From: a virus
Lineage: Duplodnaviria; Heunggongvirae; Uroviricota; Caudoviricetes
Direction: 5' to 3' (one strand)
DNA: 64,000 bases
IMG/VR virus record: IMGVR_UViG_3300045988_150439
Below, piece by piece: positions 3,054 to 59,872 of the stretch. How positions within the stretch are numbered: position 1 is the first letter of the stretch; each line of letters starts with the position of its first letter. The position numbers and the translations under genes are program-made. Below the pieces are notes generated by a model. That model did not search any database and was not told where the DNA came from. It saw only the letters and a list, made by a program, of their open reading frames with translations.

Positions 3054-3159
3054 TTTCAAAAGATACCCACCAGAACAACTCCCTTCCGTTTCCACTTCCA
3101 AAAACTGCCACCAATCGCTATCATCAGCTCATTGTGATAAGTAAGTAACTACCTACCAG

Positions 3160-3909
3160 GTGAGCCACATGAGCCAAATCTTTTTCGACACCATCGACAA
3201 CGACCAGTACGACTTCATGACAGAGTGGAATACCGCTGTTATGGATAAGTGGGTTGCTGAAAACATTGGTTTGTCGCGCTGCAAAGACGAGGCTGAACTC
3301 TTCGATACGAAGTGGTTTGATTACCGCGACATGCATCCTCTTATGGCCACCTGTCTGTTTACGGAGGCATACAAACGTCAGTACTCAAATATCATGCTGA
3401 CGCACGGTCGCGAACACTTTGAAACAGCTCCGTTCACCACCGGGTTAAAACGCCTGCCTTATCAGGAGTTGTCGACTGCCAATAAAACGTCGCTATGGAA
3501 AGCACGCCAGTTTGCTGACCGCTATTGCTGCTCATACGACTACTTTATCTCCACCGTTCTTTCCGCAGCTGCACGACGTCTGTGGGACAAGCTGCCTCGC
3601 CCACAGCATTTGTGGCAGCCAGAACTGATTGAGATATTTGAAGAGAAATTAGCCAGACGCGCAACAACCCGTCTGGATGACTCTCTGGTTAGCTTTAAGC
3701 ATATAGGAGACATGCAGTTCAACCCGATCCAGGAAAGCTATTTTGAGTGGATTCTGGAGCGTTTACGCACCATCCCCCGCAGCAAGCGCATACGCGCAAT
3801 TTTCTCCGCTATCTGGCTAATGGAAATCGTTCCAGAGCGCCTTATTTCCGCCCACTTTCCAGAAGAACTGGAAGAAGCACGGCGGTTTATTGATCCCCTA
3901 TCCAATTAA
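3160..3909 (+). CDS. hypothetical protein
   Basis: 249 aa ORF in the coding strand of the block; GTG at 3160 or ATG at 3169; preceded by a taagta-type palindromic motif at 3135-3158. Confidence 0.45.
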   Translation: MSHMSQIFFDTIDNDQYDFMTEWNTAVMDKWVAENIGLSRCKDEAELFDTKWFDYRDMHPLMATCLFTEAYKRQYSNIMLTHGREHFETAPFTTGLKRLPYQELSTANKTSLWKARQFADRYCCSYDYFISTVLSAAARRLWDKLPRPQHLWQPELIEIFEEKLARRATTRLDDSLVSFKHIGDMQFNPIQESYFEWILERLRTIPRSKRIRAIFSAIWLMEIVPERLISAHFPEELEEARRFIDPLSN

Positions 3910-3952
3910 CTAATACTAGAAAACAATTTGTTTAAAAAACAAAGGAAAGCAC

Positions 3953-5293
3953 ATGACCGAACTTTGCCATACAGGACGCGGGCTGTCCGAAGAGTTTGAT
4001 GAAGATTTCCAGAACAGACTGACGGCATATTTTTGTCGTGATCACGAGTTTCTTACTCGTGCGGGAGATCTGGTTGTGCCTAGCCAATTTGCCAATGCGG
4101 CCAATGCCATATTGGTTAATATGGTTTCGGGCTATTACCGTATGTACAAGAGCGCGCCCTCTTCATCTGCAATTCTGGATATGCTTAAGCGTGCGAAACG
4201 CGATAAGACTATCCGTGAGGAACTATTCGCCGATGTTGTTGCTGCGTTTAAGCGCATCCTTGCAGAAAAATTGTCCGATACCTCGTACATGGTTGACCAG
4301 GTATCAACCTTCGCAAAAAGCGTAGCGTTTGATGATGCTCTGATTAAGGCTGCTGAACTGAAAGAGAAGGGCGACTTTCAGGGGGCGATGGCAATCATGG
4401 CCAAGGTTCAGCAGATTGGATCGAACGAAGCGACCGGAATCTATGACTACTACACCTCAGCAAGTGAGCGACTGAAAGCGCGTGAATATGAGGCCTCAGA
4501 GGAGTATGTGCCAAACAGTATTACAACTGGACTCCCTCTTCTCGATAGGTTGCTGTACCAAAAAGGCTGGGCAAAGCGCGAAATGGTGCTCTTCATGGGG
4601 TTCGCTAAATCCGGTAAATCGACCGCAATGGGTGAGTTTTCCATAAACGCAACGCTTGCTGGCTACAATGTTCTGTATCTCTCGCTGGAGGTTCACACCA
4701 CCATTTTATCCGACCGTTTTGACGCAAGATTGTCGGAGACAGAAATGTCCAAGCTGGTGGAACGGCGCGATGAGGTTCATCGTAAGTTGGCAGAGTTGGG
4801 AGCCACGAAGGGGATTGGTAGTTTGTGGGTGGTTGAGCGTCCGTCAGGAAGTATATCACCGGCAGATCTGGATCGTATGCTCAACAGCATGAAAGCCAAT
4901 GGCATGGTGCCTGACATGGTTGTTGTCGACTACGCAGATTTGATGCGTGCCAGTTATGACCTTCGTGATGATCGCGCCAACATTCGTAGTATCTACACCG
5001 ATTTGCGTGCTCTTTATGACAAGCATAACGTTGCTGGGATCACGGCATCGCAGACAAACCGTGAAGGTGGCGCGTCAGAAGTTGCCACAATGATGCACGC
5101 TGCCGACAACATCGAAAAAGTACGTATTGCTGACCTGGTAATAACGATCAACAAAACCGAAGAAGAAGAAGCGAAAGGAGAGGCTCGTCTCTACTTTGCT
5201 GGTTCACGTAACCAGCAGGGAGGGATCAGCATTCGCGTTAAACAAAACCTCGAACAAATGCGCTTCATTGAGCGAATCTTAGACGTTACCTAA
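3953..5293 (+). CDS. DnaB/gp41-like replicative DNA helicase
   Basis: C-terminal RecA-fold with Walker A GFAKSGKST and Walker B-like MVVVDYADLM; sits directly upstream of a primase-like gene. Confidence 0.6.
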   Translation: MTELCHTGRGLSEEFDEDFQNRLTAYFCRDHEFLTRAGDLVVPSQFANAANAILVNMVSGYYRMYKSAPSSSAILDMLKRAKRDKTIREELFADVVAAFKRILAEKLSDTSYMVDQVSTFAKSVAFDDALIKAAELKEKGDFQGAMAIMAKVQQIGSNEATGIYDYYTSASERLKAREYEASEEYVPNSITTGLPLLDRLLYQKGWAKREMVLFMGFAKSGKSTAMGEFSINATLAGYNVLYLSLEVHTTILSDRFDARLSETEMSKLVERRDEVHRKLAELGATKGIGSLWVVERPSGSISPADLDRMLNSMKANGMVPDMVVVDYADLMRASYDLRDDRANIRSIYTDLRALYDKHNVAGITASQTNREGGASEVATMMHAADNIEKVRIADLVITINKTEEEEAKGEARLYFAGSRNQQGGISIRVKQNLEQMRFIERILDVT

Positions 5294-6553: not shown

Positions 6554-6631
6554 TAACAATCACCTTTAAAATAAGTAGATGATTACTTATCTTTCTGTGA
6601 GAATACTTTCATCTGTTAGCTAGGAGTTGGT

Positions 6632-7408: not shown

Positions 7409-7463
7409 TCTCTCCGCGCGTCGTTTTTTACGCAAATAACGATAGGTAAGTACAAGATTATTT

Positions 7464-7946
7464 ATGGCGGTAGTTGTGAAAGCTGATTTGTCAAAAATCC
7501 CTTCTATTTCAGGAAATAACGGTTATTCACTTCGTTGTGAGGAAGTAAAGATAAACGGTGAGTCGGCATATTGCAGCTATTCCGTTTGCCAGCACACCAT
7601 TCTTGCCTTCAAAGAAAACCGTCTTCCTCGAACTTCTTTCCAGTCGTGCGCAACCGCTATTAAAGCAGGCAAATGCAAGGCGTTAAAAATGATGGTTGAA
7701 GAGATTCGTAAAGGAGAATCTCTGTATTTCGAAGATATGACCGCGCTCATTAAGGAGGTTGAAGAACGGAATAAACAAGCCAGAACTATAAAACGAAAAC
7801 GTGACAGTGTAACGATTAATAGCATGGTTAAGAAGAGCACCACATCACAAACAGCGATCACTGACGTGTATGCGGCGTTGCTTGAAGAAACAACAAAAGA
7901 AACACATGAGCAAATCGATCAACATATGGAGGCAAAACAACAATGA
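7464..7946 (+). CDS. hypothetical protein (Cys-rich)
   Basis: 160 aa ORF; start preceded by the gataggtaagtac motif; stop overlaps the ligase start. Confidence 0.4.
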   Translation: MAVVVKADLSKIPSISGNNGYSLRCEEVKINGESAYCSYSVCQHTILAFKENRLPRTSFQSCATAIKAGKCKALKMMVEEIRKGESLYFEDMTALIKEVEERNKQARTIKRKRDSVTINSMVKKSTTSQTAITDVYAALLEETTKETHEQIDQHMEAKQQ

Positions 7947-9640: not shown

Positions 9641-9789
9641 TTCCATACATCTCATTAGCTTTTATGGGTGGCTTCCTTATCGGCTTCGGCATCTGTCGTG
9701 ATTTAATTAAGCAGGAACTTAAAACCAAAACACTGTGCATCGGAAAGCGTGTGTATCGGGTAGTTCATGAAACAAAGGTGAAAAAATGA
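9637..9789 (+). CDS. small membrane protein (50 aa), paralog of 9262-9441
   Basis: MIPYISLAFMGGFLIGFGIC...GKRVYRVVHE; its first 15 nt (atgattccatacatc) recur at 10650 and at the lox-like site at 15356. Confidence 0.3.
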   Translation: MIPYISLAFMGGFLIGFGICRDLIKQELKTKTLCIGKRVYRVVHETKVKK

Positions 9790-10076
9790 GCAATTTAACT
9801 TCTTGGGAATGGTGGTTGGCCACCTATTTCTTAGCGACCGGAGTCGCATTCGCCTTTTACGTAGGTCAGTTAGTCGTAAAACTGTTGCTTATTAAATTTG
9901 CTAGTCATAAACGTATCGATGATGGTCTGTGGCGTCTTGGTACCCTGGTGGAAACTCGCTACGGGCAACTTAAGGAGAACGAAACCATTACTATCCAAGC
10001 GAAACGATTCACTGCCACCATCACAAGAACACCTGATCGTAGAGTGGCCTTGATCAAAAAAGTCACAACCGAATAA
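9786..10076 (+). CDS. small membrane protein
   Basis: 96 aa, N-terminal hydrophobic segment (WWLATYFLATGVAFAFYVGQLVV). Confidence 0.35.
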   Translation: MSNLTSWEWWLATYFLATGVAFAFYVGQLVVKLLLIKFASHKRIDDGLWRLGTLVETRYGQLKENETITIQAKRFTATITRTPDRRVALIKKVTTE

Positions 10077-10466
10077 AAACATGGTGATAAGTATTTACTT
10101 ACTTATCTTTTATGTATAAGATGACTTTGTTTTCGTTGAGACGCGACTGTTTGAACTTAAATACAAGTGCAAACGAAGAAGTCTATCTGGCAGTAGCCTA
10201 ATAAGCCAAACACCAGCGAGGTCAGTTTCCAGCCTCGTTACCGAAATGGGACACACTGAGCGAGTGTGATTGCAGAACGCAGGAGGGAACATTCATGTTC
10301 CCTCCGATGAAGTAACAGAATGGGCGGTTGGTATATTTTCAACTCCATATGACTCCCGGATTCTTAGCCACTGACCGCCCATCCTGTTACGTCATTTTGT
10401 TCAATTATGTCGTTTATACTGGGTTAAAAAGCGGCGACGTAGCCCGGCTGGTATGGTTAGCCAGCA

Positions 10467-11592: not shown

Positions 11593-12804
11593 TCAAAAAA
11601 GTTTTATAAATTCATAATTCTGGTCAATTAAGGATTCAATACACACCATGCAAAAATCTACATCGTTAAAATCAGGTGTGTAATATTCATCCTCATAACA
11701 TTCATTTAGACCTTCAATCAATTTTTCTTTAAAAACTCCCCACGTTTCAATATGAACCATTTCCATATAAGGCGCATGTGTATGTACTTGCAATACATCC
11801 CAGGTGTCTATAACCTCGATCCGCGGCTTGCAATTAATTTTTTCTAAATATGCCCTCCCAGAATTGTAAATTTTCGACATTGATGCCCCAAAACCTGATG
11901 GTTGGTAATGAGTGTAAATGTCATAAATTTTTTGTCCTATTCTAGGGAGTTGAGAAGCATTGGATATTTGTGGCGAATGAAAGTATCGCTCTATGGAAGA
12001 AAACGCAGAAACATTAACTAGAGTAATCGTATATGGTGCTAAAGTTCTCTCGTTCAAATTTCTACATAAAATAGCAAACCCATGGCTATTAGTCTTTTCA
12101 CCGTCTGAGGACATTTTTGCCATGCTGGCTTTAATAACATTCAATTTCGAATGTAAACGAGAAGTGGAAGTCGGTTGATTATACATTTCATCATCATACA
12201 AACATATATGAAACCCGCCAAGATGACGAAATGAGAACTTGAGTGCTTCTTCCGCAATAACTAATTTATTAATATCTAAAGGAGTAAGTGATACGTTACC
12301 TTGTAAATCATAGCAAGGTTCTAAACATAGAAAGTTTTTCTTCTGCCACACAATCATATTAAAAATAAAGTGTCTAACCAAAGGTGGCCAGTCAGGTGAT
12401 ATAAGTACATTGGTAATATCTCCATCAGACAAGTATGACAAGTAACTTTTTAGTTCCGCAGCATATGCCACTAGCTCAGTTCCAGCTTCCCTTGTTGGTG
12501 TTGAAAAATTTTTTAACTCAATAAGAACTAAGGATTCATTCTCTGTTGAATAAGCAACGACATCAGGTCTTAATATCTCAGATTTTGTTGCTGAGATATT
12601 TTCATCATCTGTCATTAAATGTAACAATGTTATATTCTTTAAACAAAACTGATAACTCTCCTTAATTTTTTTCTCTTCGGGTCTTTTCGGATTAAATTCA
12701 TTTAATTTATCAATATTGATGATTGAATTATATAATCCATCTTGATCAGATAATTTGTCAATTATCCAATTTTGCATTTCCTTTTCGCTTAAAAATATTG
12801 ACAC
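11593..12804 (-). CDS. PD-(D/E)xK nuclease-like protein, putative (second gene of an AT-rich two-gene module)
   Basis: 403 aa; N-terminal region carries a PD-x14-ExK arrangement (RPDVVAYSTENESLVLIELK); GTG start with GGAG RBS; strongly AT-rich; 26 bp downstream of its partner. Confidence 0.4.
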   Translation of the reverse strand: MSIFLSEKEMQNWIIDKLSDQDGLYNSIINIDKLNEFNPKRPEEKKIKESYQFCLKNITLLHLMTDDENISATKSEILRPDVVAYSTENESLVLIELKNFSTPTREAGTELVAYAAELKSYLSYLSDGDITNVLISPDWPPLVRHFIFNMIVWQKKNFLCLEPCYDLQGNVSLTPLDINKLVIAEEALKFSFRHLGGFHICLYDDEMYNQPTSTSRLHSKLNVIKASMAKMSSDGEKTNSHGFAILCRNLNERTLAPYTITLVNVSAFSSIERYFHSPQISNASQLPRIGQKIYDIYTHYQPSGFGASMSKIYNSGRAYLEKINCKPRIEVIDTWDVLQVHTHAPYMEMVHIETWGVFKEKLIEGLNECYEDEYYTPDFNDVDFCMVCIESLIDQNYEFIKLF

Positions 12805-12830
12805 TAATTAGGCTCCCGTTAAACCAAAAA

Positions 12831-13652
12831 TTAAAAATCTTGCTTTACTTTATCCATAGTCAGAATTTTGCTAATAATTGAAGATTCAAATCCATCTAAA
12901 CCTGAGAGAAAGTTAATTAGCTTTTGGATATGTTGTTCTTTAGGTATAAGTATATATTTTATATCATTGAACTCAAAATCAATGCCAAACTTTGAAAATT
13001 TTGAGCTAATTTTTGCTTTGTCATCAGAAGTGATAACACGCTCCAAACTCAGACTAGGCCATAAATCACCAATAAAAGGAGCTGGCACATAACGCCACTC
13101 TTTCTCGTCTGCATATATATAATTCTCTATTGTTTTATTATCTTTTCGCTCTAGCTTGCCTCTGTAATTTTTCATATAACGCAGTAAATTATATAGATCA
13201 GAATATTCTGCTTTCAATTTCTCAAACTCTATTCTGTTTTTGGTATCTAAATTTCCTCTAGCCTTCCAAAGCGGCACCAACTTTTTTTTAATAAGTCGAA
13301 TTCTGGCATTGTATTTAGAAAATATTTCACTGCTCTTATTCATATATAGAACTGGGTGTAGACCTTTCTTTTCCGCCCAAGACTTAGTTAGCCCAAGACC
13401 GAATTCCCCATATTTTCCGCTATGATCTCTGATTTGTGATAGTTTTATGTCACAAAACGATACCATTGGTACTGCAAACCTCCTGCGTCCCCCGACTCCT
13501 CTTATTTCCTCGCGAGCAAGAAATGGTTTAAAATATTTCTCAGCCAATATGCTATAGAAAGCATCTTCGTTTTTTGTAAAATGAAACAACGTGGTTGGAT
13601 GAAGACTATAAACAGATTCAACATTCGCATCAGGATTTTCAAGGATAGTCAT
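12831..13652 (-). CDS. Abi-like hypothetical protein (first gene of the AT-rich two-gene module)
   Basis: 273 aa from the ATG at 13652 (RBS aaggtg); AT-rich, Lys-rich; gene sizes and order resemble two-gene abortive-infection modules such as AbiGi/AbiGii, but this is an unverified recollection. Confidence 0.35.
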   Translation of the reverse strand: MTILENPDANVESVYSLHPTTLFHFTKNEDAFYSILAEKYFKPFLAREEIRGVGGRRRFAVPMVSFCDIKLSQIRDHSGKYGEFGLGLTKSWAEKKGLHPVLYMNKSSEIFSKYNARIRLIKKKLVPLWKARGNLDTKNRIEFEKLKAEYSDLYNLLRYMKNYRGKLERKDNKTIENYIYADEKEWRYVPAPFIGDLWPSLSLERVITSDDKAKISSKFSKFGIDFEFNDIKYILIPKEQHIQKLINFLSGLDGFESSIISKILTMDKVKQDF

Positions 13653-13801
13653 TTTACACCTTGTGGAAAGCCAGTTTAGTTCTGTAAATAGTATCACACG
13701 ACAGGCGGCTATTCTTCTATCAATAAAGGATAGGTAAGCACTTACTTTTTACGCGCGTTAATTGTATAGTTCTTTCGGATACTCACTTGAAAGGACTCAA
13801 T

Positions 13802-14900: not shown

Positions 14901-15311
14901 ATGAAGATCACATGGAACAGTGATAGTTACGCCCAATTTTTAAAGCCGACCTTCGATATAAAGCCTGACTTAGAGATTACGTTACTCAACGATTTCAAGT
15001 CGTTTAAACAAGGCATGTACCCAGCCCTATTCGGCAAAGATGGCCCGTATACGGCTCCTGGTGCTATCGTGTCCTCCCGCGTTTATCACGTTCATCTCTT
15101 GTTCACGAAGCAAGAACGAACCAGCAGCCGCAGCAGATTCAATTGCACAAGCGACCGTGCACTCGTTTACAGTCAACATGCACATTTCCAAGATGTGTAT
15201 AGCCTATTGGCAATCTTCCCTAACAACGCACATCAGTACGCGAAAGATCCAAAAATTATGGTCGATATCGCTGCCTACGCGGCCGCATTTCAAGCTCTCA
15301 CTAACCCTTAA
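14901..15311 (+). CDS. YafO-family toxin-like protein
   Basis: 136 aa; segments FGKDGPY...VYHVHLLF, RALVYSQHAHF and LLAIFPNNAHQYAKD...AAYAAAF parallel E. coli YafO as recalled from memory (not searched). Confidence 0.45.
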   Translation: MKITWNSDSYAQFLKPTFDIKPDLEITLLNDFKSFKQGMYPALFGKDGPYTAPGAIVSSRVYHVHLLFTKQERTSSRSRFNCTSDRALVYSQHAHFQDVYSLLAIFPNNAHQYAKDPKIMVDIAAYAAAFQALTNP

Positions 15312-15353
15312 CAATCATATTAATAACGCCTCAGAATTTAAATTCCTCCCTTA

Positions 15354-15386
15354 AATGATTCCATACCTACTATGTATGGAATCATT
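15354..15386. repeat. lox/FRT-like recombination site candidate (13-bp perfect inverted repeats, 7-bp spacer)
   Basis: aatgattccatac-ctactat-gtatggaatcatt, about 100 bp upstream of the tyrosine recombinase gene. Confidence 0.5.
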
Positions 15387-15484
15387 ACTAAAAATGAGTT
15401 ACTTTGACTCTTGATCCTATAAGAATCTATGCCTAATATACTGTTTACTTATACAGTGTATCGGCGTAACTCGGTGATTGTCAT

Positions 15485-16588
15485 ATGAAAAATAGCTTTG
15501 ACAGAGCACGCGCAGCGGAGAACACCTCAAAAGAGGCGATTGAGTATCTCGAAAGAGCATCTCAAATGCAGGCCGTTATGATCTCGCAGGTTAGCAATGA
15601 CATGAGATTCTCAGACGCATTCATGTTATTCACTCGCTTATCTCTGCTAATAACAAGACGTCGGCCAGAGATCGCTGTTCACTGTATTTTGATACATGTT
15701 TTGCCGCACATTGCTGATGTAAAAGTAAGTGACATTAATAGGTTCATGGTGAACCAACTGGTCAACCCACTAATACTGGATGGCAAAATTGTTATGGGCC
15801 GCCGCGTTTTCTCTCTGATGAAGCAGTTCCTTAGCTGGTGCGCCTTCCAGGGGATGATAGACGTGTCACCGTTAAACGATATGTCACTTAACAAAGTTGC
15901 CGGTGGCGCAAAGCCCACACCTCGCGAGCGGAAGCTGACCGACGCAGAGGTATGGGTGTTCTGGAATATATGGGACTACTTCAATGTGTGTGCTGGTACA
16001 AAATGGGCGGCAAGGCTATGTCTTGTATCCGCAAGACGACCTGATGAAGTACTGCGGGCTAAAAAAAGTGAGTTCAATCTTAAGCGTGGGGTTTGGAATC
16101 AAGGCAAAAGAAACAAGTCAGCACGTGAGCATTCGCTGCCTTTAAGCACATTAATGCGCACATGCATTGAAGAGTTGTTCGAATACGGTAAAGATAGCCA
16201 GTGGCTCGTTCCTTCGAATAAAAAAATCGGGAAAGACCTTCCTATGTCTAAAGTGGCAATAGCCCAGGCATTACGTCGTATTCTGGAACGACCAGAACTG
16301 ATGGAGCTTGAGCCATTTACACCCCGAGATTTGCGCCGTACTGCGCGTAGTTACTTCCCAGCATTAGGCATAAGCCAGGAGGTATCACGTAAAATCATGA
16401 ACCACAGTCTTGAGGGGATAGATCGGGTCTACGACCGGCACGATTATATGGACGAGATGCGAGACGCCTTAGAAAGTTTCTCGACGTACATCGCATCAAT
16501 CGTAGAGCAACCGGATTTAGACGAAATTGACCACAAATTTAAGGGAGATCGTCTATCAACAGAGCTTATTCGTGTAAATTTTTCATAG
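15485..16588 (+). CDS. int: tyrosine recombinase / phage-type integrase
   Basis: C-terminal catalytic region with ARLCLVSARRPDEV (Arg box), TPRDLRRTARSY and NHSLEGIDRVYDRHDY (His/Tyr box); true start may be internal to the listed ORF. Confidence 0.65.
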   Translation: MKNSFDRARAAENTSKEAIEYLERASQMQAVMISQVSNDMRFSDAFMLFTRLSLLITRRRPEIAVHCILIHVLPHIADVKVSDINRFMVNQLVNPLILDGKIVMGRRVFSLMKQFLSWCAFQGMIDVSPLNDMSLNKVAGGAKPTPRERKLTDAEVWVFWNIWDYFNVCAGTKWAARLCLVSARRPDEVLRAKKSEFNLKRGVWNQGKRNKSAREHSLPLSTLMRTCIEELFEYGKDSQWLVPSNKKIGKDLPMSKVAIAQALRRILERPELMELEPFTPRDLRRTARSYFPALGISQEVSRKIMNHSLEGIDRVYDRHDYMDEMRDALESFSTYIASIVEQPDLDEIDHKFKGDRLSTELIRVNFS

Positions 16589-16969
16589 AGACTTTATGGC
16601 CTCAACAACCTTTTGTGATGCGCCTTTCTCTTTACCGAATCGCTCGTTATATGCAGCAAGAACCTGTTTTTCGTCCTCGTTAAGAGGAGCAGTGCCTTCT
16701 TTGTATAAAAATGCTGCGAGTTCGGGTTGACGTTCTTCCAGCACCATCATCATAAGACGACTTGGCTCAATACCCAGTGCCAGCGCCAGCGGACGAACCT
16801 TATCGATAGGCAAAGGAATTTTGCCGCTTTTAATTAAAGAAAGGTTGTTGGCGTTTTTATACCCAATTGTTTTGGCTATCTGGGCCTGGCTCATAGGTGA
16901 GGATTCAATCAACCCTGCGATAAAAGCAGCGTAGCGACTTTCTATAAATTCAATCTTGTTATCAGACAT
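16583..16969 (-). CDS. XRE-family helix-turn-helix transcriptional regulator (repressor-like)
   Basis: HTH segment MSQAQIAKTIGYKNANNLSLIKSGK; same orientation as the recombinase gene's opposite strand, with a 250-bp AT-rich control region upstream of it. Confidence 0.6.
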   Translation of the reverse strand: MSDNKIEFIESRYAAFIAGLIESSPMSQAQIAKTIGYKNANNLSLIKSGKIPLPIDKVRPLALALGIEPSRLMMMVLEERQPELAAFLYKEGTAPLNEDEKQVLAAYNERFGKEKGASQKVVEAIKSL

Positions 16970-17220
16970 GGTTACAACCTTTGCGCGTTCAATTCTCTCT
17001 GGTAAGTGCTTACCGATATTACATCAAAGGTTAGGGTTGTAAAGCTATTATCATTTTTTTCGATAGGCACTTAAAATACCGGTTAAAGGCCATTGCACGG
17101 AGAAAAATTAGCCCAAAATAGGTAAGAAAATCAACTTTCATATGATATGAATGTATTCAGTATTGATACAAATTTTAGTAGTATTCCTTACCATAGTATA
17201 AGTTAGAATGGATTGATTGA

Positions 17221-17433
17221 ATGAAAACCACTATTTCCAGCCTAATCGCTCTTGAGATGGGACACGTACAGAAATTAGCTGATGAGTGTGTAGCTGACAT
17301 CCTCACCGATCTGCCGAATGAGCAGATTCAGGTTGGTGTGAATGACACAACTGGCTTTATATTCGAACTTAACAACAAACGCTTCACGCTTCTCAATACC
17401 GGCTCCTGGTCTTTAGCCGTCAGAATCTGTTAA
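17221..17433 (+). CDS. hypothetical small protein
   Basis: 70 aa ORF followed by hairpin ctgcgcgaa...ttcgcgcag at 17446-17478. Confidence 0.3.
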   Translation: MKTTISSLIALEMGHVQKLADECVADILTDLPNEQIQVGVNDTTGFIFELNNKRFTLLNTGSWSLAVRIC

Positions 17434-19640: not shown

Positions 19641-19735
19641 TTAAAACAGCCTTAAAGATAAGTAACTACTTACCATAGTTAATGGTATATTTATATAAGA
19701 ACTTGAACGCTCATTAGAGAACAAAGGAAAAGCGC

Positions 19736-24700: not shown

Positions 24701-24973
24701 AAAGAATTATGGCGCTTGTTGAGGAAGTCACTCCTCTTACGCACTTTGTTTTGCCATGCCGGCAGTTAGCTTCTGCCTTTGACTATTCATGCGGCAACCC
24801 CGCATTTCGCCACAATGGGCAATTCACTTTTATGGAATAAACTGGCCGTTGTGTCGATTTAATTAGCATGGCCTTACCATGCTAATTTATTCAACTTGTA
24901 AAATCCTACAAATCTATCCACTCAGGCTTACACCGTCTTCGTTATTGTAGAAATGAGGATCATCAGCGTTGAA

Positions 24974-25189
24974 TCAGCTTAGAGCAACGACATTTGCTGC
25001 TGCTGGGCCTTTAGCCCCATTCTCGATAGAGAATTCGACCTGCTGGCCTTCTTCCAAAGTGCGGAAATTATTACTCTGAATTGCCGAAAAATGTACAAAA
25101 ACATCTTTACTGCCATCAGCAGGAGAAATAAAGCCAAAGCCTTTATCAGAGTTAAACCATTTTACTAAACCAGTCATTTTATTAGACAT
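24974..25189 (-). CDS. CspA-family cold-shock protein (CspB/CspG/CspI-like)
   Basis: [38 protein letters not shown]... matches E. coli cold-shock proteins almost residue for residue; start taken at the internal ATG (25189) with RBS; long 5' leader upstream. Confidence 0.85.
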
Positions 25190-25518
25190 AGATACTACCT
25201 TCTTAATTTTGTGAGCCACATAGTGCGGCGAGAATTTGATCTGTATAGATTGGGACTTACTTAGGCACTTAAGGAGGAGACTCACGAAGAAGGGAAATCA
25301 GAAGATAACACTGAACTGAGACTGCTTTACTAAAACTGCTTACATAAGGTCTGTCTTGCAAACCAACGATGCTATTAACGCATACCCCTTCTTTTCATGC
25401 AACCTTTATTTTTCAAAGATAACTAATTTTTGTCACCATTGGTTTAGTAAACGTTAACGAACCAGACGATGCCAGACACCTTTACAGAGAACAGATGCCC
25501 GCCAATTGGCGGGCATCA

Positions 25519-26082
25519 TTATGCGCATTTCGCAATATCTTTGCGGCGTTTAATCAGTTTCTCCGCAATTTGCTCTATTTCGTTGAAATCTTTCGAGACG
25601 CTGTTTCGAAGCGCCAGATTCCATTTACTCAAAGTTCGGGCATTTTGGACAATTTGATCGCCCTCTTTAAGTCGTCCGTTATTCATGAGCCATTCAGCCA
25701 CATCAGCCCAATCCCAGAGAGGAGACTGGCCTTTTATGCGTTGTACAGGGCAAGGGAAGTCGCCGCTTCCGCGCTTACCGTCTTTGAGCAACGCCACTGC
25801 CTGGCGAGACAGGTCTGTCAGTTCCGCGATATCGCTTAAGCCCACAAGAGCCGAGTCGACGGATTCAACAATTGCACCGATACCGGCTGATTCAATATTG
25901 TCGACCGCAGATGCGATAGCTGCATCAAGTGATTGTGCTTCGCGGTCAAATTCTACATAGACGGAGTTTCCATATGCGCAAATTAGCGCATCGTCACAGC
26001 CGTTTTGGTACAGCGCGTCTTCCAGTCCTTCCGTCTCATACGATACGCCTGAGAGCGTCAGAGTGAAGTTATAAAGCGCCAT
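25519..26082 (-). CDS. hypothetical protein with probable C-terminal HTH
   Basis: 187 aa from the ATG at 26082 (aaggaaa RBS); LSDIAELTDLSRQAVALL resembles an HTH; downstream partner of the small Cys/His gene. Confidence 0.4.
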   Translation of the reverse strand: MALYNFTLTLSGVSYETEGLEDALYQNGCDDALICAYGNSVYVEFDREAQSLDAAIASAVDNIESAGIGAIVESVDSALVGLSDIAELTDLSRQAVALLKDGKRGSGDFPCPVQRIKGQSPLWDWADVAEWLMNNGRLKEGDQIVQNARTLSKWNLALRNSVSKDFNEIEQIAEKLIKRRKDIAKCA

Positions 26083-34551: not shown

Positions 34552-34558
34552 TAGCACC

Positions 34559-35036: not shown

Positions 35037-35039
35037 GGG

Positions 35040-36095: not shown

Positions 36096-36139
36096 TCCAA
36101 ATGTCTCTTGTTATTCGACGGCTTTGGTGGCCTTTGCTG

Positions 36140-36257
36140 ATTACAGTGGATAGTAGCACTCATCACAGCGGTTATCCTACCGTCTATAGTGGTTTTTCTC
36201 CTCTCTATAGTGGTTGCTTTGCTCCCTATAGTGGATTATTCGCTCTCTATAGTGGAT
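36140..36257. repeat. origin iterons, set A (about 21-bp phasing)
   Basis: gattacagtggatag, cgtctatagtggtt, ctctctatagtggtt, ctccctatagtggatt, ctctctatagtggatat at roughly two-turn spacing. Confidence 0.6.
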
Positions 36258-36367
36258 ATCGATCATGTCTGAAGGCAGATGGCACAACGGTTTGAGGTGG
36301 GCGGGGATCTTATTGGGTCTTTATGGGTCTCTTTGGTTCTCTTTGTGATCTGAATTACTGGATCGGG

Positions 36368-36376
36368 CCTGTGGAT
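36368..36376. promoter_or_regulatory. DnaA box (tgtggataa) within the origin region
   Basis: Exact match to the reverse complement of TTATCCACA; further 8/9 matches at about 36416, 36512 and 36743; flanked by GATC clusters and an AT-rich stretch. Confidence 0.45.
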
Positions 36377-36538
36377 AAAAATCAGAGGATTTCAAGAACA
36401 GGTAACTCTACTCTTCTGTGGATATTTAAGGACATAAGAATCATGACTAAGAGTAGAGTTTAAAATATATCTATGTATATCAGTATGTTAATGAAGAATT
36501 AAGTCATTAAGTTATCCATAAAAGACAATGTGCTCTAC

Positions 36539-36640
36539 TCTCTACAGTGGATATATACAGCTCTCCAGAGTGGTTGTTTTACTCTTCATAGCGGTTATTC
36601 AGCTCTCTACAGAGGTTTCTTTGCTCTCCATAGTGGATGG
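36539..36640. repeat. origin iterons, set B (about 21-bp phasing)
   Basis: ctctctacagtggatat, ctctccagagtggttg, ctcttcatagcggtta, ctctctacagaggttt, ctctccatagtggatgg; followed by a GATC-rich stretch at 36665-36745. Confidence 0.6.
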
Positions 36641-36838
36641 CAACACCCTTTCAGACCAGTAACCGCAACGGCTAGAGGCGATCGGGGATCTCTTTGGATC
36701 TTCTATTTGATCTTACTTGGGATCTCTTATTTGGATCTATCCAGTGGATAACTGGGATAAGTAAAACAGGCAAATGCAGATTAAGGTATGCCTAATGAGT
36801 TATCGTAGCATCGGCCAATAACTACTGAAAAAACGATT

Positions 36839-37483: not shown

Positions 37484-37737
37484 CCCTCCAGATCGTATAT
37501 TGGCGTAGATAGAATCTACGCCCCCTCAAAATAGCTCTCATAGCGTTCTACAGTGATCCTGTCTTATTTTTAGTCATACAGACAAGCAAAGTTGCGCCAC
37601 GATAAATAGGTATATACTTACTTATAAATTTTGTATATTAAGGCGCTCGTTTCATTCCTAACATACCGTTATGCATAGTTGTTTACCTTCTCATTGCTCT
37701 TAAAATTTGTATCAAAATAACCACAAAGGAAAAACAC

Positions 37738-42281: not shown

Positions 42282-42315
42282 TCTCATTGATAGGTAAGTG
42301 CTTATCTATTAATAT

Positions 42316-42346
42316 GGGCCACTAAATATAGTGGCCCTCTTTATTT
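42316..42346 (+). terminator. terminator-like hairpin between the resolvase and nrdA
   Basis: gggccact-aaatat-agtggccc followed by a T-rich tract. Confidence 0.55.
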
Positions 42347-46954: not shown

Positions 46955-47030
46955 TCTGTCTGGTCTTGTTCTCTCAATGAATGTAAACTCACATGATGAA
47001 TAAGTAATTACTTATCTTTGTGAGGTTTTT

Positions 47031-48134
47031 GTGTCACTCCTTTTGAATCGTGAGCATACGAACGGTCAGGTAACAAACGCATCGTATGCAAAAGTTATTG
47101 AGACGGTGCTTAAAAGCGGCGTGCAGGCTGATGATCGCACAGGCACTGGTACTTTAAGCACCTGCTACGTTCCCTCTTATTACATGCTTACTGGTGGGAC
47201 TGTGCCGCTTATTTCTGGAAAGGCGGTAAATCTTAAGCCACTGCTTGTCGAACTTGAGTGGTATCTGAAAGGCACGGGCAACATCCAATTTCTCAAGGAT
47301 AACGGCGTTAAGATTTGGGATGCATGGGCCGATGAGAATGGCGATTTGGGGCCGGTTTACGGTAAGCAGTGGCGTCGATGGGAAGATACCCGCATCGTGA
47401 GCCATAGTGAATATCTGAGCAAGATCGATACTTTCCGTGAACGCGGGTACAAAGTCGAGGGATACCTGGGTATCAGTGAAGATCGCGTAGTGCTATCCCG
47501 TGAAATCGATCAGCTACAGCGTATTGTCGATACACTGCGCACGAACCCTACCGATCGTCGCATCATGCTTAACGCATGGAACGTAGGCGAGCTTGAGGAT
47601 ATGAAACTGCCACCTTGCCACTTTGTCTTCTCTTTGTGGAGTCGTGAGCTGGATTTTGAAACCCGTTTAACGATGGCAACTGACATTGGTCTTCAACACA
47701 GTCGCCTCGGTTACGAGTCTATCTACACCAAGATGCTATACGATCTGGAGATGGACGGCAGTGTTACTGAAGCTGAACTGGATGAACTTGGAATCCCCAA
47801 ACGCATCCTCAACTCCTGCCTCGTACAGCGTAGCGTAGACACTTTTGTTGGTATGCCATTCAATATTGCTGGCTATGGCATTCTCACTCATTTTCTCGCG
47901 AAGATTACGGGTCACATGGCCGGTGCATTTGTGCATTTTGGCTTTGACGTGCATTTGTACAACAACCACATGGAAGGTGTGTGTGAGCTAATGAAACGAC
48001 AAGCTCCAGAGCATTCAGATCCGGTCGTTATTTTCCCTCATGAATGGTCAGAGTTGGATGATTTCAAATGGGACGAGGTTTTAATTCTTGGCTATGACCC
48101 TCTACCGTGGATCAAGGTTCCAGTGGCGGTGTGA
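47031..48134 (+). CDS. thyA: thymidylate synthase, with an internal insertion of roughly 50 aa
   Basis: DRTGTGTLS, IWDAWADENGDLGPVYGKQWRRW, DRRIMLNAWNVGELEDMKLPPCH, FNIAGYG and C-terminal GYDPLPWIKVPVAV closely match E. coli ThyA; GTG start. Confidence 0.85.
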   Translation: MSLLLNREHTNGQVTNASYAKVIETVLKSGVQADDRTGTGTLSTCYVPSYYMLTGGTVPLISGKAVNLKPLLVELEWYLKGTGNIQFLKDNGVKIWDAWADENGDLGPVYGKQWRRWEDTRIVSHSEYLSKIDTFRERGYKVEGYLGISEDRVVLSREIDQLQRIVDTLRTNPTDRRIMLNAWNVGELEDMKLPPCHFVFSLWSRELDFETRLTMATDIGLQHSRLGYESIYTKMLYDLEMDGSVTEAELDELGIPKRILNSCLVQRSVDTFVGMPFNIAGYGILTHFLAKITGHMAGAFVHFGFDVHLYNNHMEGVCELMKRQAPEHSDPVVIFPHEWSELDDFKWDEVLILGYDPLPWIKVPVAV

Positions 48135-52464: not shown

Positions 52465-52647
52465 CGTTCCCCTACTGAAAATAAAGCCCATAGAGAGCTT
52501 TATAGTGCTGGGTAAGCCAATCACATACCCAGCACCACAAAAACGCGCCAGAGAGCTTCTCGTTTGCATTTCTGGCGCGTTTTATTTGATTGCCAGACAT
52601 AAAATCAAATGCAAAAATAGGTAATCACTTACCTATCGAGAAAGAAG

Positions 52648-53262: not shown

Positions 53263-53324
53263 AGCCTGCTTCTGTATATATATAAATAACTACATATTAA
53301 TTATTAATATACGGAAGCAGGCTG
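53263..53324. repeat. second copy of the nested palindrome / hairpin seen at 2999-3053
   Basis: Arms agcctgcttctgtatatat / atatacggaagcaggct around an AT-rich loop containing tataaata; followed by gttttgt. Confidence 0.55.
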
Positions 53325-53404: not shown

Positions 53405-53659
53405 ATGAACCACTTTAAGGAAACCAACATGTCATACCCGACTAATGTCGTTGCGCTCGTAGAGAGCGATTTTCTGGCTAAGGCTCGTGAAATGATGAAA
53501 GATCGCGAGCAGGCTTTCAACTTGTACGAATGGGCAATTAAGTGCTTGCATCTTGGGGAGCATCGCGAACTTGTTGAACAGCTTTTAGGTGAGTTGATCA
53601 ACGAGGTGTTTGCCTTGAATGTTCAACTACATGGTCGAGAAAATAATCAATCGAAATGA
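53405..53659 (+). CDS. hypothetical small protein
   Basis: 84 aa ORF (alternative ATG at 53429). Confidence 0.35.
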   Translation: MNHFKETNMSYPTNVVALVESDFLAKAREMMKDREQAFNLYEWAIKCLHLGEHRELVEQLLGELINEVFALNVQLHGRENNQSK

Positions 53660-54241
53660 TAGATAAGTACAAACTATTCATAAAATGAATTGTAAGTGCT
53701 AAGATCTGATAGTTTCCAGTCGTAGACTGGAGACTCGACCTGATGGGTGGGGGTAAGCGTCACTGGCGTCAGGTTTAAAAAAGCTCACTACCAGCGTAGA
53801 ACCGGTGCCGTTTAGGTGTCGGGGAAGGGGGAACCAAAGTGAGCGGAGACAAGGGTCACTTTATGATTGTCGAGTCTGGGGTGTTTCGAGAGGTTGAATC
53901 CAGTACTCCCCTTCATAAAGTGTGGGAAGATCTCGGTTCTGGGGTGCTGTCATCCATAACTTCCCAAGTCTAAGCTGGCAGTAGACTTAGACCATAGCTT
54001 TTCAGGTTATGAAACGACCAGGTTGGTGAGGAATTTTATACTCACCTCCCTGGGAGAGTATTACCTGAAAAGACAACCTCTCACTTCGTTCGAGGTGAAC
54101 TTCACTCACTTCGTTCGTTCAGTTCAGGTTTATAAAAACCTGTTCTGGGAAGTAATTTGTTTATTTTAATAATTATTAACACGCACGCGTGTGCGCACGC
54201 GCGAGGAAAAAATCGGCGCGGCGCTTGATTCAGGAGTTTAT

Positions 54242-54835
54242 ATGACGACGAAGACACCAGCCCGATCGCAAGAAAAAACTCGCAAAAAAGCCAAAAACAA
54301 AAATTCTCCCCGCGCCAATTCCACAACGCCTGTCGTAGAGTTCAATCCCCAGCTTAAAACCGTGAAAATCTTCAGTGATGGCTCTTGCCTTAAAAATCCG
54401 GGTGGCCCGGGCGGTTACGGTATAGTTCTCCAGTATCGTGGTGAGGAACGCGAGTTCTCAGATGGTTTTCATAGCACCACCAATAACCGCATGGAGATGA
54501 TGGGGGCACTTATTGGGCTGGAGCGTTTGAAATATCCATGCAACGTTATTTTGCACTCTGATAGCCAGTATCTGAAAAACGGCATGACACAGTGGATGAA
54601 ATGGTGGAAACGCAATGGATGGGTGACTTCTGACAAAAAACCGGTAAAGAATGTTGATCTGTGGAAGCGTCTGGATGAGGCCGCAAGTCGACATAATGTT
54701 CGCTGGAAGTGGGTTAAAGGTCACGCCGGGCATCGTGAAAATGAAATATGTGATCGACTCGCGAAGATCGCAGCTTTTTCCGCAGCAGATATGCCTCACA
54801 AGAAAGATATTGGTTTTGTTTACAACAAGCAGTAA
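54242..54835 (+). CDS. rnhA: ribonuclease HI
   Basis: [55 protein letters not shown] and [13 protein letters not shown] closely match E. coli RNase HI; start set at the ATG with aggag RBS (track ORF begins at 54191). Confidence 0.85.
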
Positions 54836-54980
54836 GTAAGTGTTTACCTATCATTTTAAATCATGTATCTTATCAGCGTCAGGATGACAATGTGTCGGTA
54901 AGACACAGTTCCAGGATGGAACGAGAAAGGCGGCTGGCAATCGCCAGCCGCAACTCTTTCTGACACTGGATGGAGTCCAC

Positions 54981-58022: not shown

Positions 58023-58125
58023 CCAATGCCTTTATTTGAAGGATTGCCTGTTTATTTCTATTTAGTACCTTTTCATTTTTGAAATAATTGCACCATTAAA
58101 CAAATCACTTCTTAATGGTGCAATT

Positions 58126-59811
58126 ATGAATACAGCCCTTTCCATCATCGACGATGCCAACTCAAACACTGCTATCGACTATCGGCAGGAAATGAACGTC
58201 ATCCACGAAATTGTGGCCGAGTGCGAGAAAGAGATCGCCTTCATGTATCAGGTACACGACTTCGTTTATGGCGACGAACGCCACAACATGATTAATCGCC
58301 TGCTGAGACTAAACCATCGACCAGATGAAGATCGCTCGCGTTTAAATCGAGGTTGGTTGGATAAAGTCGATCTGGAATGGGTGAAACAGAATATTTGGGC
58401 CGAGTACTGGAGGAAGGTCACGGACATGACTAACGTTTTGCTGATCATGCCAGCTTCCCGTCGAGATGAGTGGCGCGAGCAGTTTATAGAGGGCAAACAG
58501 GAAGTCATCAAAACTGACAGAACCGGCTACCAGATGAAGGTTAAAGAGTTCGTTGGTGTACCGGAGTTCAAAGCAGAAACGGTCATACCCACGATGCTTA
58601 ATTTGCTGAATGACAGGCACAAATATCTCTCTGAGCGCGTGTATGGCTTGTTTAAGGCGCTGAGTCCTGCGCACAAGACAAATAAGACAAACGGTTTCAG
58701 CGAGCGTCTGATAATCGCTGACTGCATTTCTGATTTCTGGCGGGACAGCGTTAGCGTGAACTATCGCAAAGAGGACTACATCGACGATCTGCGTGTCTTG
58801 CTTCATTTCTTCGCGCACAAAGAATTTATTACCATCAACCGCACTGCTGAGGTGCTATCAGCTGCGTATCGAGCAAACGACTGCCAGACCGGTGACTGGA
58901 TTAACGTCGATGGAAATCTGATGCGCGTGAAGATGTTCAAGAACGGCAACGTTCACTTTGAAATACATCCTGACGTGGCCTGGAAGTTGAATGAGGTGCT
59001 GGCTTACAGTATGCCTGCTGCAATCCCCGCGCCATGCCGAACTGCGCCAAAAACACGGGCACCAAAGCAGTTCGGTTTAATCCAGAAGACGATCTCCGTG
59101 CAGGTTCGCACTGCGCTTCGTGACGGGCGATTGAGCAAAGACAAAGGCGTATGGTACTTCTCTGATTCAGCTCTCCAGAAGTCGCAGGTGGAAGAGCTTG
59201 AGCGCACACTGAGCTTCATTGGCGGCGTGCAGGAGAAAAAGCACTGGCAGTTCCCGTATGACATCGGCCATACGCTAAATACGATTGTGGCTACCGGTTT
59301 AATACCGGATACAAAATCACACCAGTTCTACCCTACCCCACGCTTGATTGCTGAGTACGTTGCCAGAGCCACTGAATTGAAGCCTGGTGAGAAGCTGTTG
59401 GAGCCTCAAGCCGGACGTGGGGATCTTCTGGCCTATATTAACGCCGATCTGGAAGATGTTACCTGCATAGAAATCGCACCTCTCTTCGCTGATATCCTGC
59501 GTGGAAAAGGGTATACGAACACGATTTGCTGCGACTTCATAAAGTGGTCTGAGGACAACGCAGGTTATCAGTTCGACAAAATCGTTATGAACCCGCCGTA
59601 CTCGCTTGGTCGTCATAGAGAGCACACGCTGGCTGCGCTGGGGCATCTGAAAGTCGGCGGGCGTCTTGTAGCAGTATTGCCGGGCACTGCGCCAATACTG
59701 GACTGGATGACGATGGATAATTACGTTTATGCCAGAGGGAAGTCGTTTACCAACGAGTTTGAAGACACAGGGATCACAGTCAGCGTATACGTTTTCAAAC
59801 GCGTTAAATGA
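58126..59811 (+). CDS. N6-adenine DNA methyltransferase with a large N-terminal domain of unknown function
   Basis: C-terminal class I SAM-MTase with motif I LEPQAGRGDL and motif IV NPPYS; about 380 aa N-terminal extension unassigned. Confidence 0.55.
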   Translation: MNTALSIIDDANSNTAIDYRQEMNVIHEIVAECEKEIAFMYQVHDFVYGDERHNMINRLLRLNHRPDEDRSRLNRGWLDKVDLEWVKQNIWAEYWRKVTDMTNVLLIMPASRRDEWREQFIEGKQEVIKTDRTGYQMKVKEFVGVPEFKAETVIPTMLNLLNDRHKYLSERVYGLFKALSPAHKTNKTNGFSERLIIADCISDFWRDSVSVNYRKEDYIDDLRVLLHFFAHKEFITINRTAEVLSAAYRANDCQTGDWINVDGNLMRVKMFKNGNVHFEIHPDVAWKLNEVLAYSMPAAIPAPCRTAPKTRAPKQFGLIQKTISVQVRTALRDGRLSKDKGVWYFSDSALQKSQVEELERTLSFIGGVQEKKHWQFPYDIGHTLNTIVATGLIPDTKSHQFYPTPRLIAEYVARATELKPGEKLLEPQAGRGDLLAYINADLEDVTCIEIAPLFADILRGKGYTNTICCDFIKWSEDNAGYQFDKIVMNPPYSLGRHREHTLAALGHLKVGGRLVAVLPGTAPILDWMTMDNYVYARGKSFTNEFEDTGITVSVYVFKRVK

Positions 59812-59872
59812 TAGGTAAATACTTACTTAATTTGTGTAAGAATGTAGTTACTAAACGATAAGAGAAAAACAC

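Follow-up and report, generated by a model that had tools for sequence, protein, structure and literature searches.

Dispersed 20-bp palindromes as candidate operators of a small XRE-type repressor in SSU5-like phage-plasmids

Introduction

What binds a palindrome that recurs between the genes of a phage-plasmid, and what would binding do there? The question is raised by a 64,000-nucleotide stretch of IMG/VR record IMGVR_UViG_3300045988_150439 (Caudoviricetes), here called the window. A preliminary description of it reported near-palindromes upstream of many genes and offered two readings: the operator set of a single dimeric regulator, or an element-specific promoter class. We find that the palindromes are very probably operators of a dimeric regulator encoded by the element itself. 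On balance, the sequence comparisons favour the view that they would serve as dispersed operators and transcription roadblocks of a 128-amino-acid XRE-type candidate immunity repressor (16583–16969, minus strand).

The window comes from an SSU5-like element. Over a 6.2-kb stretch, identity is 98.8% to Escherichia phage Cyrano, an SSU5-like phage-plasmid from E. coli LF82, and about 76% to both Salmonella phage SSU5 and Klebsiella phage-plasmids. Most of the window aligns to Cyrano at 96–99% identity, with different cargo in two segments. Its genes cover plasmid partition, replication, recombination and nucleotide metabolism, a RepA/iteron replicon and an integrase–repressor module. Besides pHCM2 (S. 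Typhi) and pMT1 (Y. pestis), the SSU5 supergroup takes in plasmids of the Klebsiella pKpn type and Acinetobacter relatives. Phage-plasmids like SSU5 are frequent in Escherichia, Salmonella, Klebsiella, Enterobacter, Yersinia pestis and Acinetobacter, and some carry resistance genes. The literature we searched, a recent review included, holds no description of the palindromes or of regulation in the SSU5 group, lysis–lysogeny control included. An operator sequence with a named candidate repressor would make that control directly testable.

Consensus and enrichment

The refined consensus is a perfect 20-bp palindrome, ATAGGTAAGT followed directly by ACTTACCTAT, with R/Y tolerated at positions 4 and 17. 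Information is highest at positions 2–7 and 14–19; in the flanks, TG/AA is favoured on the left side and CA on the right. The centres of the two conserved blocks are about 12 bp apart, a spacing that would suit a helix-turn-helix dimer.

The 16-mer given in the preliminary description has 10 matches with at most 2 mismatches, against 0.15 expected from shuffles of the whole window. Because that description had named AT-rich intergenic composition as a possible source of the enrichment, we also shuffled the intergenic DNA alone (10.1 kb, 41% GC), which gave 9 matches against 0.07 expected. For the 20-mer consensus with at most 4 mismatches, the window has 16 matches, which are 15 distinct loci because those at 46996 and 47000 overlap. 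Concatenated intergenic DNA has 15 matches against 0.03 expected (shuffle maximum 2), far beyond what AT-rich composition yields. The centres of all matches fall in the non-coding 15.8% of the window. Unbiased k-mer counts point to the same motif: ATAAGTAA occurs 15 times (2.0 expected), TAAGTAAGT 8 times (0.39) and GATAGGTAA 6 times (0.30).

The preliminary count of at least 15 intergenic regions is thus borne out, and the motif is present at all eight coordinates cited there. These include a perfect 16-bp palindrome at 47000–47015, with 15 nt between its end and the GTG start at 47031. The gene that starts there (47031–48134) had been named thyA, and it is indeed ThyA-type (PF00303, E=2e-78); in the Cyrano record it is labelled ThyX.

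Copies were also scored with a position weight matrix (PWM). The matrix was trained on the window, which makes in-window scores circular, so the enrichment rests on consensus and mismatch counts and on independent genomes. In total the window holds 15–17 copies.

Genome-wide spread and conservation

With a PWM score of at least 14 bits there are 26 copies in Cyrano and 25 in SSU5; the first 100 kb of the Klebsiella element pJN2-26 has 19 of at least 15 bits. Copies in the three genomes occupy orthologous gaps. Beyond the window, such gaps include terL–portal, M–L, J–fibre and fibre–holin, together with the gap that follows the major capsid gene and the one between the tail-completion gene Tc1 and the tail protein gene; one conserved copy lies within the 3′ end of the portal gene. 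An accessory block of about 20 kb in Cyrano (84.7–105.1 kb) has zero copies. Replication and nucleotide-metabolism genes do have sites, as proposed in the preliminary description, but limiting the set to them is too narrow, as head, tail and lysis operons have sites too.

Orthologous 20-mers from the window, SSU5 and pJN2-26, anchored on the palindrome, are 87% identical. The adjacent 20 nt on the two sides are 41% and 49% identical in an ungapped comparison, which may put these flank values slightly low. At 37606, 46996 and 52617 the palindrome is an isolated conserved island in a spacer that is otherwise unalignable. A scan of 2.9 million IMG/VR contigs for the exact consensus found 26 stretches, every one in an SSU5-like element. 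The sites are under selection and family-specific.

A duplex DNA site

A palindrome may act as DNA or, once transcribed, as a hairpin. Over 36 distinct copies, 259 of 360 arm pairs are Watson–Crick, against 263.6 when right-arm columns are permuted (p = 0.83). The combinations at positions 4 and 17 are AT (9), GC (9), AC (8) and GT (7). We folded eight copies as RNA. The conserved, high-scoring copies at 3137 (−0.2 kcal/mol), 33807 (0) and 27067 (−2.4; z = −0.37) fold no better than shuffles. No Rfam family matches at any palindrome site; the matches in the window are a cspA thermoregulator and two tRNAs. Arms without covariation, together with several copies unable to fold, argue for a double-stranded DNA site for a symmetric protein and not an RNA hairpin, and a two-fold symmetric duplex site implies a dimeric protein. 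A structured RNA element (hairpin, terminator or REP-like) was rejected, as compensatory changes are absent and three conserved copies have no stable fold.

An element-encoded binder

Plasmids of A. baumannii are syntenic with the family (SbcCD, RecA-like, DnaE, CobT/MoxR, ligase, primase, helicase, tail, lysis and integrase–repressor module). In each Acinetobacter element the most over-represented words spell out a palindrome of like design but different sequence, ATCAGTCAGT joined to ACTGACTGAT in NZ_CP155459 and ATTAGTAAGC joined to GCTTACTAAT in pDD520. Matches with at most 4 mismatches to the enteric, Acinetobacter-1 and Acinetobacter-2 motifs (ATAGGTAAGTACTTACCTAT, ATCAGTCAGTACTGACTGAT and ATTAGTAAGCGCTTACTAAT) are mutually exclusive across the three elements (11/0/0, 0/11/0 and 0/0/10). 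Some site positions are kept across lineages, for example in the CobT–MoxR gap and in the gap upstream of the SbcD-like gene; in pDD520 (L012) the lineage-specific palindromes stand at L012:17121 (CobT–MoxR gap) and L012:2983 (upstream of the SbcD-like metallophosphoesterase gene). Different and mutually exclusive palindromes in these relatives mean that the binder is element-encoded. As both Acinetobacter elements come from one host species, a host factor is ruled out.

Two further features of pDD520 have no counterpart seen in the enteric window. A gene for a sigma-70-family sigma factor lies between the MoxR-like and DnaE genes (15101–15766), and a second over-represented motif, TTTTTGTACCGTTA, is asymmetric and has 7 dispersed copies. 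It could be the promoter cognate to that sigma factor.

Copies in the window and their relation to promoters, start codons and terminators

Copies are named here by their first position; their coordinates carry no strand. When all Cyrano and SSU5 copies are aligned along transcription, information content is at background beyond about 3 nt from the palindrome, and no downstream element appears at a fixed distance. The palindrome stands 1–112 nt from the next start codon and mostly 8–41 nt from the preceding stop. The shortest gaps to a start are 1 nt (33807), 11 nt (52617), 12 nt (3137), 15 nt (46996) and 16 nt (terL–portal), which leaves no room for a transcription start site and leader at these five sites. 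Copies this near to start codons, and the lack of a −10 at a fixed distance, argue against an element-specific promoter class (compare the Lpa-dependent late promoters of P1 or the late promoters of T4), the second of the two preliminary readings. Several copies run directly into a terminator hairpin: one ahead of nrdA (hairpin at 42316–42337), one past the capsid gene and one between the M and L tail genes.

Promoter-like elements overlap some copies in two geometries. In the first, the palindrome occupies the 17-nt spacer, with a TATCAT-type −10 made by its right end (27061–27089, 31848–31876 and 33802–33829). The copy ATAAGTAAGTACTGATCTAT at 27067–27086 (27.0 bits), between uvsY and the gp32-like gene for a single-stranded DNA-binding protein (SSB), fills the spacer of TAGATA-17-TATCAT (27061–27089). 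Directly past the recA terminator (31818–31837), ATGTATAAGCACTTACTTAT at 31854–31873 fills that of TTGAAA-17-TATCAT (31848–31876). The third is ATAAGTTAGTATCTACCTAT at 33807–33826 (24.9 bits), 1 nt ahead of the ATG at 33828, a 20-mer identical in SSU5. A variant shifted by 3 nt is seen for ATAGGTAAGTGCTTATCTAT at 42290–42309 (30.1 bits), 8 nt past ruvC and before nrdA, which overlaps TTGATA-17-TAATAT (42287–42315). There, the promoter-like element ends where a strong terminator hairpin starts (42287–42337, conserved in SSU5 and pJN2-26). Upstream transcripts would terminate at this hairpin, and local transcripts would start inside it and escape.

In the second geometry, a TGnGAGAAT-type extended −10 follows about 10 nt past the palindrome and is conserved across genomes. 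It is found at four copies. Between the primase gene and the open reading frame (ORF) at 6632, ATAAGTAGATGATTACTTAT at 6571–6590 (25.3 bits) has the extended −10-like TGTGAGAAT on its 3′ side (6596–6604), and the SSU5 copy at 38178 has the same downstream TGTAAGAAT. The copy ATAAGTATTTACTTACTTAT at 10087–10106 (29.8 bits), 10 nt past ORF 9786–10076, is followed by TGTATAAGAT and then by a conserved leader upstream of tRNA genes. Upstream of sbcD, ATAGGTATATACTTACTTAT at 37606–37625 is followed by TGTATATTA at 37632–37640. At 59811–59830, ATAGGTAAATACTTACTTAA overlaps the stop of ORF 58126–59811, and TGTAAGAAT comes next (59835–59843). Both geometries are classic repressor positions; neither is universal.

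The window, SSU5 and pJN2-26 share an identical sequence, TTGTTTTCGTTGAGACGCGACTGTTTGAAC (10123–10160), past the palindrome at 10087 and its extended −10. About 700 nt separate it from the tRNA genes downstream, and it may represent either a leader that is conserved or a small RNA.

The other copies adjoin genes of several kinds. At 3137–3156, ATAAGTAAGTAACTACCTAC (28.4 bits) lies 146 nt past an upstream ORF and the large hairpin at 2999–3053. It stands ahead of an operon that starts with the ATG at 3169 (CYRAN_31 homologue, helicase and primase), and has orthologues at SSU5 33600 and pJN2-26 74983. The divergent gap between an AbiGi-like gene (minus strand) and ORF 13787 holds ATAGGTAAGCACTTACTTTT at 13730–13749 (24.5 bits; orthologue at pJN2-26 85597). 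Between the CobT-like and MoxR-like genes, the copy at 19658–19677 has the 16-bp core ATAAGTAACTACTTAC, with TGGTATATT next. The copy at 46996–47015 includes the perfect 16-bp ATAAGTAATTACTTAT (47000–47015) before thyA. An adenine methylase gene follows ATAGGTAATCACTTACCTAT at 52617–52636 (27.6 bits), which ends 11 nt ahead of its ATG. At 53659–53678 there is a weaker copy, ATAGATAAGTACAAACTATT (19.9 bits; SSU5 orthologue ATCGGTAAGTACTTACCATT), and at 54832–54851 GTAAGTAAGTGTTTACCTAT (24.9 bits) overlaps the stop of an RNase H-like gene; the orthologues of the latter in SSU5 and pJN2-26 score 33 bits. A doubtful weak match, GTAAGTACAAGATTATTTAT at 7446–7465 (10.3 bits), is probably not functional: no PWM match of at least 14 bits lies near the orthologous SSU5 position.

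The candidate repressor

The preliminary description named two candidate helix-turn-helix proteins. The one at 25519–26082 is an unlikely binder: its counterpart is a HicB antitoxin in the Cyrano annotation, and it has no Pfam match. The other, the 128-amino-acid protein at 16583–16969, a homologue of CYRAN_45, appears to be the best candidate, given its predicted XRE-type fold, its expression in the lysogen, a core of the motif on its own promoter and a conserved recognition helix.

Its match to Pfam HTH_19 is weak (E=7.8e-4; 19.7 bits, under the curated cut-off of 30.2), and it matches PHROG 8, ‘transcriptional regulator’, with E=1.3e-11. A sequence search of the PDB with the protein found no relative. 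The AlphaFold model has a five-helix Cro/CI-type domain (pLDDT 86–90 over residues 11–80). Foldseek matches it to C.AhdI, C.BclI, 434 Cro and repressor, P22 c2, SinR, HigA and Stl; for C.AhdI, 434 Cro, P22 c2 and SinR the target TM is 0.7–0.8, with E-values of only 0.005–0.07. The protein has no S24 peptidase domain, and residues 82–128 form a helical C-terminal extension.

In every lineage the repressor gene adjoins the integrase gene and is divergent from a small ORF that heads the CobT–DnaE block. This is the classic position of an immunity region. The small ORF (17221–17433; 70 amino acids, PHROG 2627, no known domain) is divergent from the repressor gene and has a Cro-like position. The proposed promoter of the repressor gene, P_rep, is a sigma-70-like TTTACA-16-TAATAT (17016–17043, minus strand), conserved in the Klebsiella, pHCM2 and L013 elements. 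A degenerate copy of the palindrome, TCTGGTAAGTGCTTACCGAT at 16998–17017, contains a perfect 14-bp core, GGTAAGTGCTTACC (17001–17014), directly downstream of the P_rep −10. The block running from TGGTAAGTRCTTACYGATATTACA to TTGTAAAG is kept in Klebsiella and pHCM2 and slightly changed in L013, in surroundings that have diverged. We propose the 16998 copy as a putative autoregulatory operator. The Acinetobacter-1 immunity region has three lineage-specific copies, one of them right after a TATAAT upstream of the repressor gene.

Protein and site also change together. Among the enteric lineages that share the motif, residues 36–54 (turn, recognition helix and loop) are the most conserved, with a column identity of 0.94 against 0.51–0.85 elsewhere; the rest of the repressor is 55–70% identical among these lineages. 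Between E. coli and Klebsiella, residues 36–54 are 79% identical, against 25–67% elsewhere in the protein. The recognition helix is different in both Acinetobacter proteins, and those of the three consensus lineages read KNANNLSLIKSG, KRPNVLSMIKSG and NQNMVSFIVRG. The consensus thus differs between lineages in step with the repressor, on three independent points only. The repressor family has matches in 995 PLSDB plasmids, and a profile search of genome contigs with the repressor alignment found 4 loci, all at about 65–66% identity, which contributed no further diversity. The preliminary reading of an operator set for a single dimeric regulator accords with the symmetric duplex site, the independent half-sites, the conserved islands and the lineage-linked change, and is probably right.

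Lysogen expression and the SSU5 deletion

RNA-seq values are for the lysogen of Cyrano, whose identity to the window is 98–99%, and come from supplementary file 2 of PMC9928086. The repressor gene stands at 96 against a median of 9.8, about 10-fold over background, and genes right downstream of strong palindromes are mostly near background (PMC9928086). Expression drops across sites: from 50–89 in the parA operon to 6.2 across the large hairpin and the 3137 site, and from 31.5 for the ASCH gene to 7.5 for sbcD across the 37606 site (PMC9928086). Terminators co-occur with expression drops at several sites. CYRAN_56, downstream of the 31854 site, is at the detection floor in LB and about 40-fold up in macrophages; with CYRAN_60–62 it makes up two units whose promoters embed palindromes, both at the floor in LB and 40–90-fold up in macrophages (PMC9928086). 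The homologue of the small ORF at 17221–17433 is the most induced Cyrano gene in macrophages (log2 4.3 to 10.8; PMC9928086).

SSU5 keeps all sites without a repressor, an integrase or orf70. In pHCM2 (L011) all three are present, and the repressor is 66% identical to that of the window. The pHCM2 flanks are 95.5–97% identical to SSU5, which lacks about 7.5 kb at about 42.3–42.7 kb: phoH, a gp49-like gene, glutaredoxin, integrase, repressor and orf70. From this alignment, SSU5 looks like a recent, virulent derivative of a pHCM2-type phage-plasmid that has lost the immunity region by deletion. As the deletion would be recent, the sites retained in SSU5 are no evidence against a repressor. A deletion of the immunity region would fit the reportedly lytic behaviour of SSU5.

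Proposed mechanism

Binder identity, repression and roadblock action are what we infer; the steps would be as follows. In the plasmid (lysogenic) state, the repressor would occupy about 25 sites over a genome of about 100 kb. A site on a sigma-70 promoter would block initiation, by overlap with the spacer and −10 at 27067, 31854 and 42290 and through the −35 region of the extended −10 promoters at 6571, 10087, 37606 and 59811. A site just past a stop codon, against a ribosome-binding site or within the late operons would be a roadblock to read-through. The weaker copy on P_rep would give negative autoregulation. Were the repressor lost or inactivated, all units would be released together. The bolder form of the proposal is tentative: that a single small XRE repressor, at about 25 sites, silences the genomes of about 100 kb of the SSU5 supergroup, with many sites true elongation roadblocks in late operons.

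Several points weigh against this proposal or limit it. The link between repressor and sites is correlative. Lysogen expression fits repression, and an absent activator predicts the same silence. Right downstream of the 6571 site, CYRAN_34 is 4–5-fold above background in the lysogen (PMC9928086). Genes in the site-free block of about 20 kb are also silent, so the palindrome is not the only silencing device; terminators and other controls contribute. In an E. coli element absent from PLSDB, the repressor variant P0032 has a changed recognition helix (GYKYQNQVSFIKSGK); the six sites visible in the 20 kb read around its gene are still canonical in type, their left halves being rich in GTATGTATGT. 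At the presumed early lytic promoter before orf70 (17221) we found only the P_rep copy and half-site-like strings, with no clear full palindrome.

Alternative explanations

It is unlikely that a different element-encoded protein of the lytic phase (an activator, a Cro-like or a late regulator) binds, with the sites marking a phage-specific promoter or regulatory class. On this account the copy on P_rep would shut off repressor synthesis. The extended −10 elements at 6571, 10087, 37606 and 59811, of the TGnGAGAAT type and about 10 nt past the 20-mer, would suit such a class, as would the TATCAT that the palindromes at 27067, 31854 and 33807 make with their right ends, but no downstream information content is conserved across all sites. 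Sites precede the middle and late gene blocks, with none at 84.7–105.1 kb, and the presumed early lytic promoter is free of a full palindrome; yet at 3137, 33807, 46996, 52617 and terL–portal a start site and leader would not fit, and terminator hairpins come right after the copies at nrdA, the major capsid gene and tail genes M–L. Growth of SSU5 without a repressor and with all sites kept also speaks for a lytic-phase protein, and its recent deletion explains that retention. No conserved candidate activator was identified.

A second alternative, quite improbable, assigns the sites to a ParB/KorB-like system for partition and global regulation of the plasmid state. The proteins of the element do include two ParB-like proteins, one ParA and one MinD-like ATPase; KorB-type operators are palindromes dispersed over a plasmid, and a weak copy lies 37 nt upstream of a ParB-like gene (Cyrano 105107). 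Sites cluster only at the immunity region, however, and not by any par locus. In the lysogen, the ParB-like genes CYRAN_119 and CYRAN_120 have values of 5.0 and 9.5, at or close to the detection floor (PMC9928086).

Two further accounts have next to no probability. Palindromes acting as RNA hairpins in polycistronic transcripts (signals for processing, stability or translational operators) would be in keeping with the folds at 42290 (−8.3 kcal/mol), 10087 (−8.3) and 52617 (−7.1), with z about −4, and with the many copies near ribosome-binding sites, but arm pairing is no higher than independent arms would give, conserved copies do not fold stably, Rfam has no match and no T-run follows the palindromes. 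A host transcription factor recruited by the element would account for the same enteric consensus in elements from Escherichia, Salmonella and Klebsiella, but neither for the different palindromes of the two A. baumannii elements nor for the confinement of the exact consensus to SSU5-like elements; we know of no E. coli factor with a consensus that matches.

Other features of the window

The preliminary description placed a half-site in the loop of the large hairpin at 2999–3053. It is there (ATAAGTAACTTAT) but scores weakly (17.5 bits, against 22–30 for true sites), and the hairpin is a separate conserved element. It is a large inverted repeat with a GC-rich stem (GCCTGCTTCYGTATAT and ATATACGGAAGCAGGC) and an AT-rich loop, found in the window at 2999–3053 and 53263–53323. 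Elsewhere it occurs at the Cyrano genome end near 108357, at SSU5 33473 and 78319 and at pJN2-26 15285 and 74858; there are two or three per genome, at the ends of gene blocks. Half-site-like strings in the loop produce the weak PWM matches. The repeat may serve as a terminator in both directions, or as a site for a protein or for recombination.

Iteron arrays with the core CTATAGTGGATA, some spaced by 21 bp, lie at 34550–35040 and 36130–36750, on both flanks of repA (35040–36095, minus strand). They are the plasmid replication origin and control region, and they account for the over-represented k-mers CCACTATAG and TATCCACTG.

Cargo unlike that of Cyrano lies at 1287–2990, 11593–13697 (minus strand) and 14901–15311. 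Its genes encode a KAP-family P-loop NTPase, an AbiGi-like abortive-infection protein with a 403-amino-acid partner, and a YafO-type toxin, and probably make up modules for defence or addiction, located at variable spots of the element. The cspA thermoregulator matched by Rfam is full-length (184 bits; 24949–25367, minus strand) and covers the 5′ untranslated region and coding region of a cold-shock-domain gene that the phage-plasmid carries. The RecA-like gene at 29473–31812 encodes 779 amino acids in the window and Cyrano, against 358 in SSU5, which suggests an intein or other large insertion.

Comparison with known systems

Were the proposal correct, it would predict which elements are homo-immune and which hetero-immune, with lineage-specific palindromes defining immunity groups among clinically common elements. 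It would explain why SSU5, without an immunity region, has no means to establish lysogeny. It would also offer engineering a compact repressor–operator pair in three natural specificities.

KorB and KorA of the IncP plasmid RK2 act at dispersed palindromic operators, some at promoters and some remote, to coordinate many operons. The palindromes described here are likewise dispersed over a plasmid. Unlike in RK2, the ParB-like proteins are at or near the floor in the plasmid state, and the sites are not clustered at par loci.

Cro/CI-type (XRE) repressors bind palindromic operators as dimers. The candidate repressor shares its predicted five-helix N-terminal fold with 434 Cro and repressor, P22 c2 and the R-M controller C.AhdI (rmsd 1.5–1.9 Å over about 62 residues, target TM 0.77–0.80). 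Here, however, operators come in tens and not in sets of 3–6.

In P1, one repressor, C1, reportedly silences a plasmid prophage of about 100 kb through many scattered operators. These precede replication, recombination, methylase and regulatory genes, and are asymmetric, 17 bp long and promoter-associated. For its late genes, P1 uses another protein, the activator Lpa, which has an inverted-repeat promoter element of its own. The size of the plasmid prophage and the dispersed operators are alike in the two cases. Unlike in P1, one palindrome here serves replication and structural operons, and it is a 20-bp palindrome instead of an asymmetric 17-mer. The candidate repressor shows only a Cro/CI-type helix-turn-helix, matched weakly in Pfam, and may still be a homologue of C1.

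To our knowledge, elongation roadblocks by dispersed repressor sites are documented only in Cluster A mycobacteriophages, whose repressor is, by analogy, the closest functional parallel. The palindromes may work like stoperators, but the set does not belong to the gp71 family; the form of the operator sets it apart from the gp71 and C1 systems. The Cluster A repressor (L5 gp71, Bxb1 gp69) has 20–30 copies of one site genome-wide; some of these sites lie in promoters, and most are not promoter-associated and block elongation (PMC6550527). One site upstream of the repressor gene serves autoregulation, and heteroimmune lineages have different consensuses, which follow the divergence of their repressors (PMC6550527). 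The SSU5-like elements resemble this: each genome has about 20–25 intergenic copies, there is one on P_rep, and the consensus comes in three lineage-specific forms. Each stoperator is bound by one repressor monomer. Stoperators are asymmetric 13-bp sites oriented with transcription (PMC6550527). The sites here are, in contrast, 20-bp palindromes without orientation, implying a dimer, and they belong to Gram-negative hosts, 100-kb plasmid prophages and a 128-amino-acid XRE-type candidate repressor. If the proposal holds, repression from many dispersed sites, roadblocks included, would extend from mycobacteriophages to the plasmid prophages of Gram-negative bacteria.

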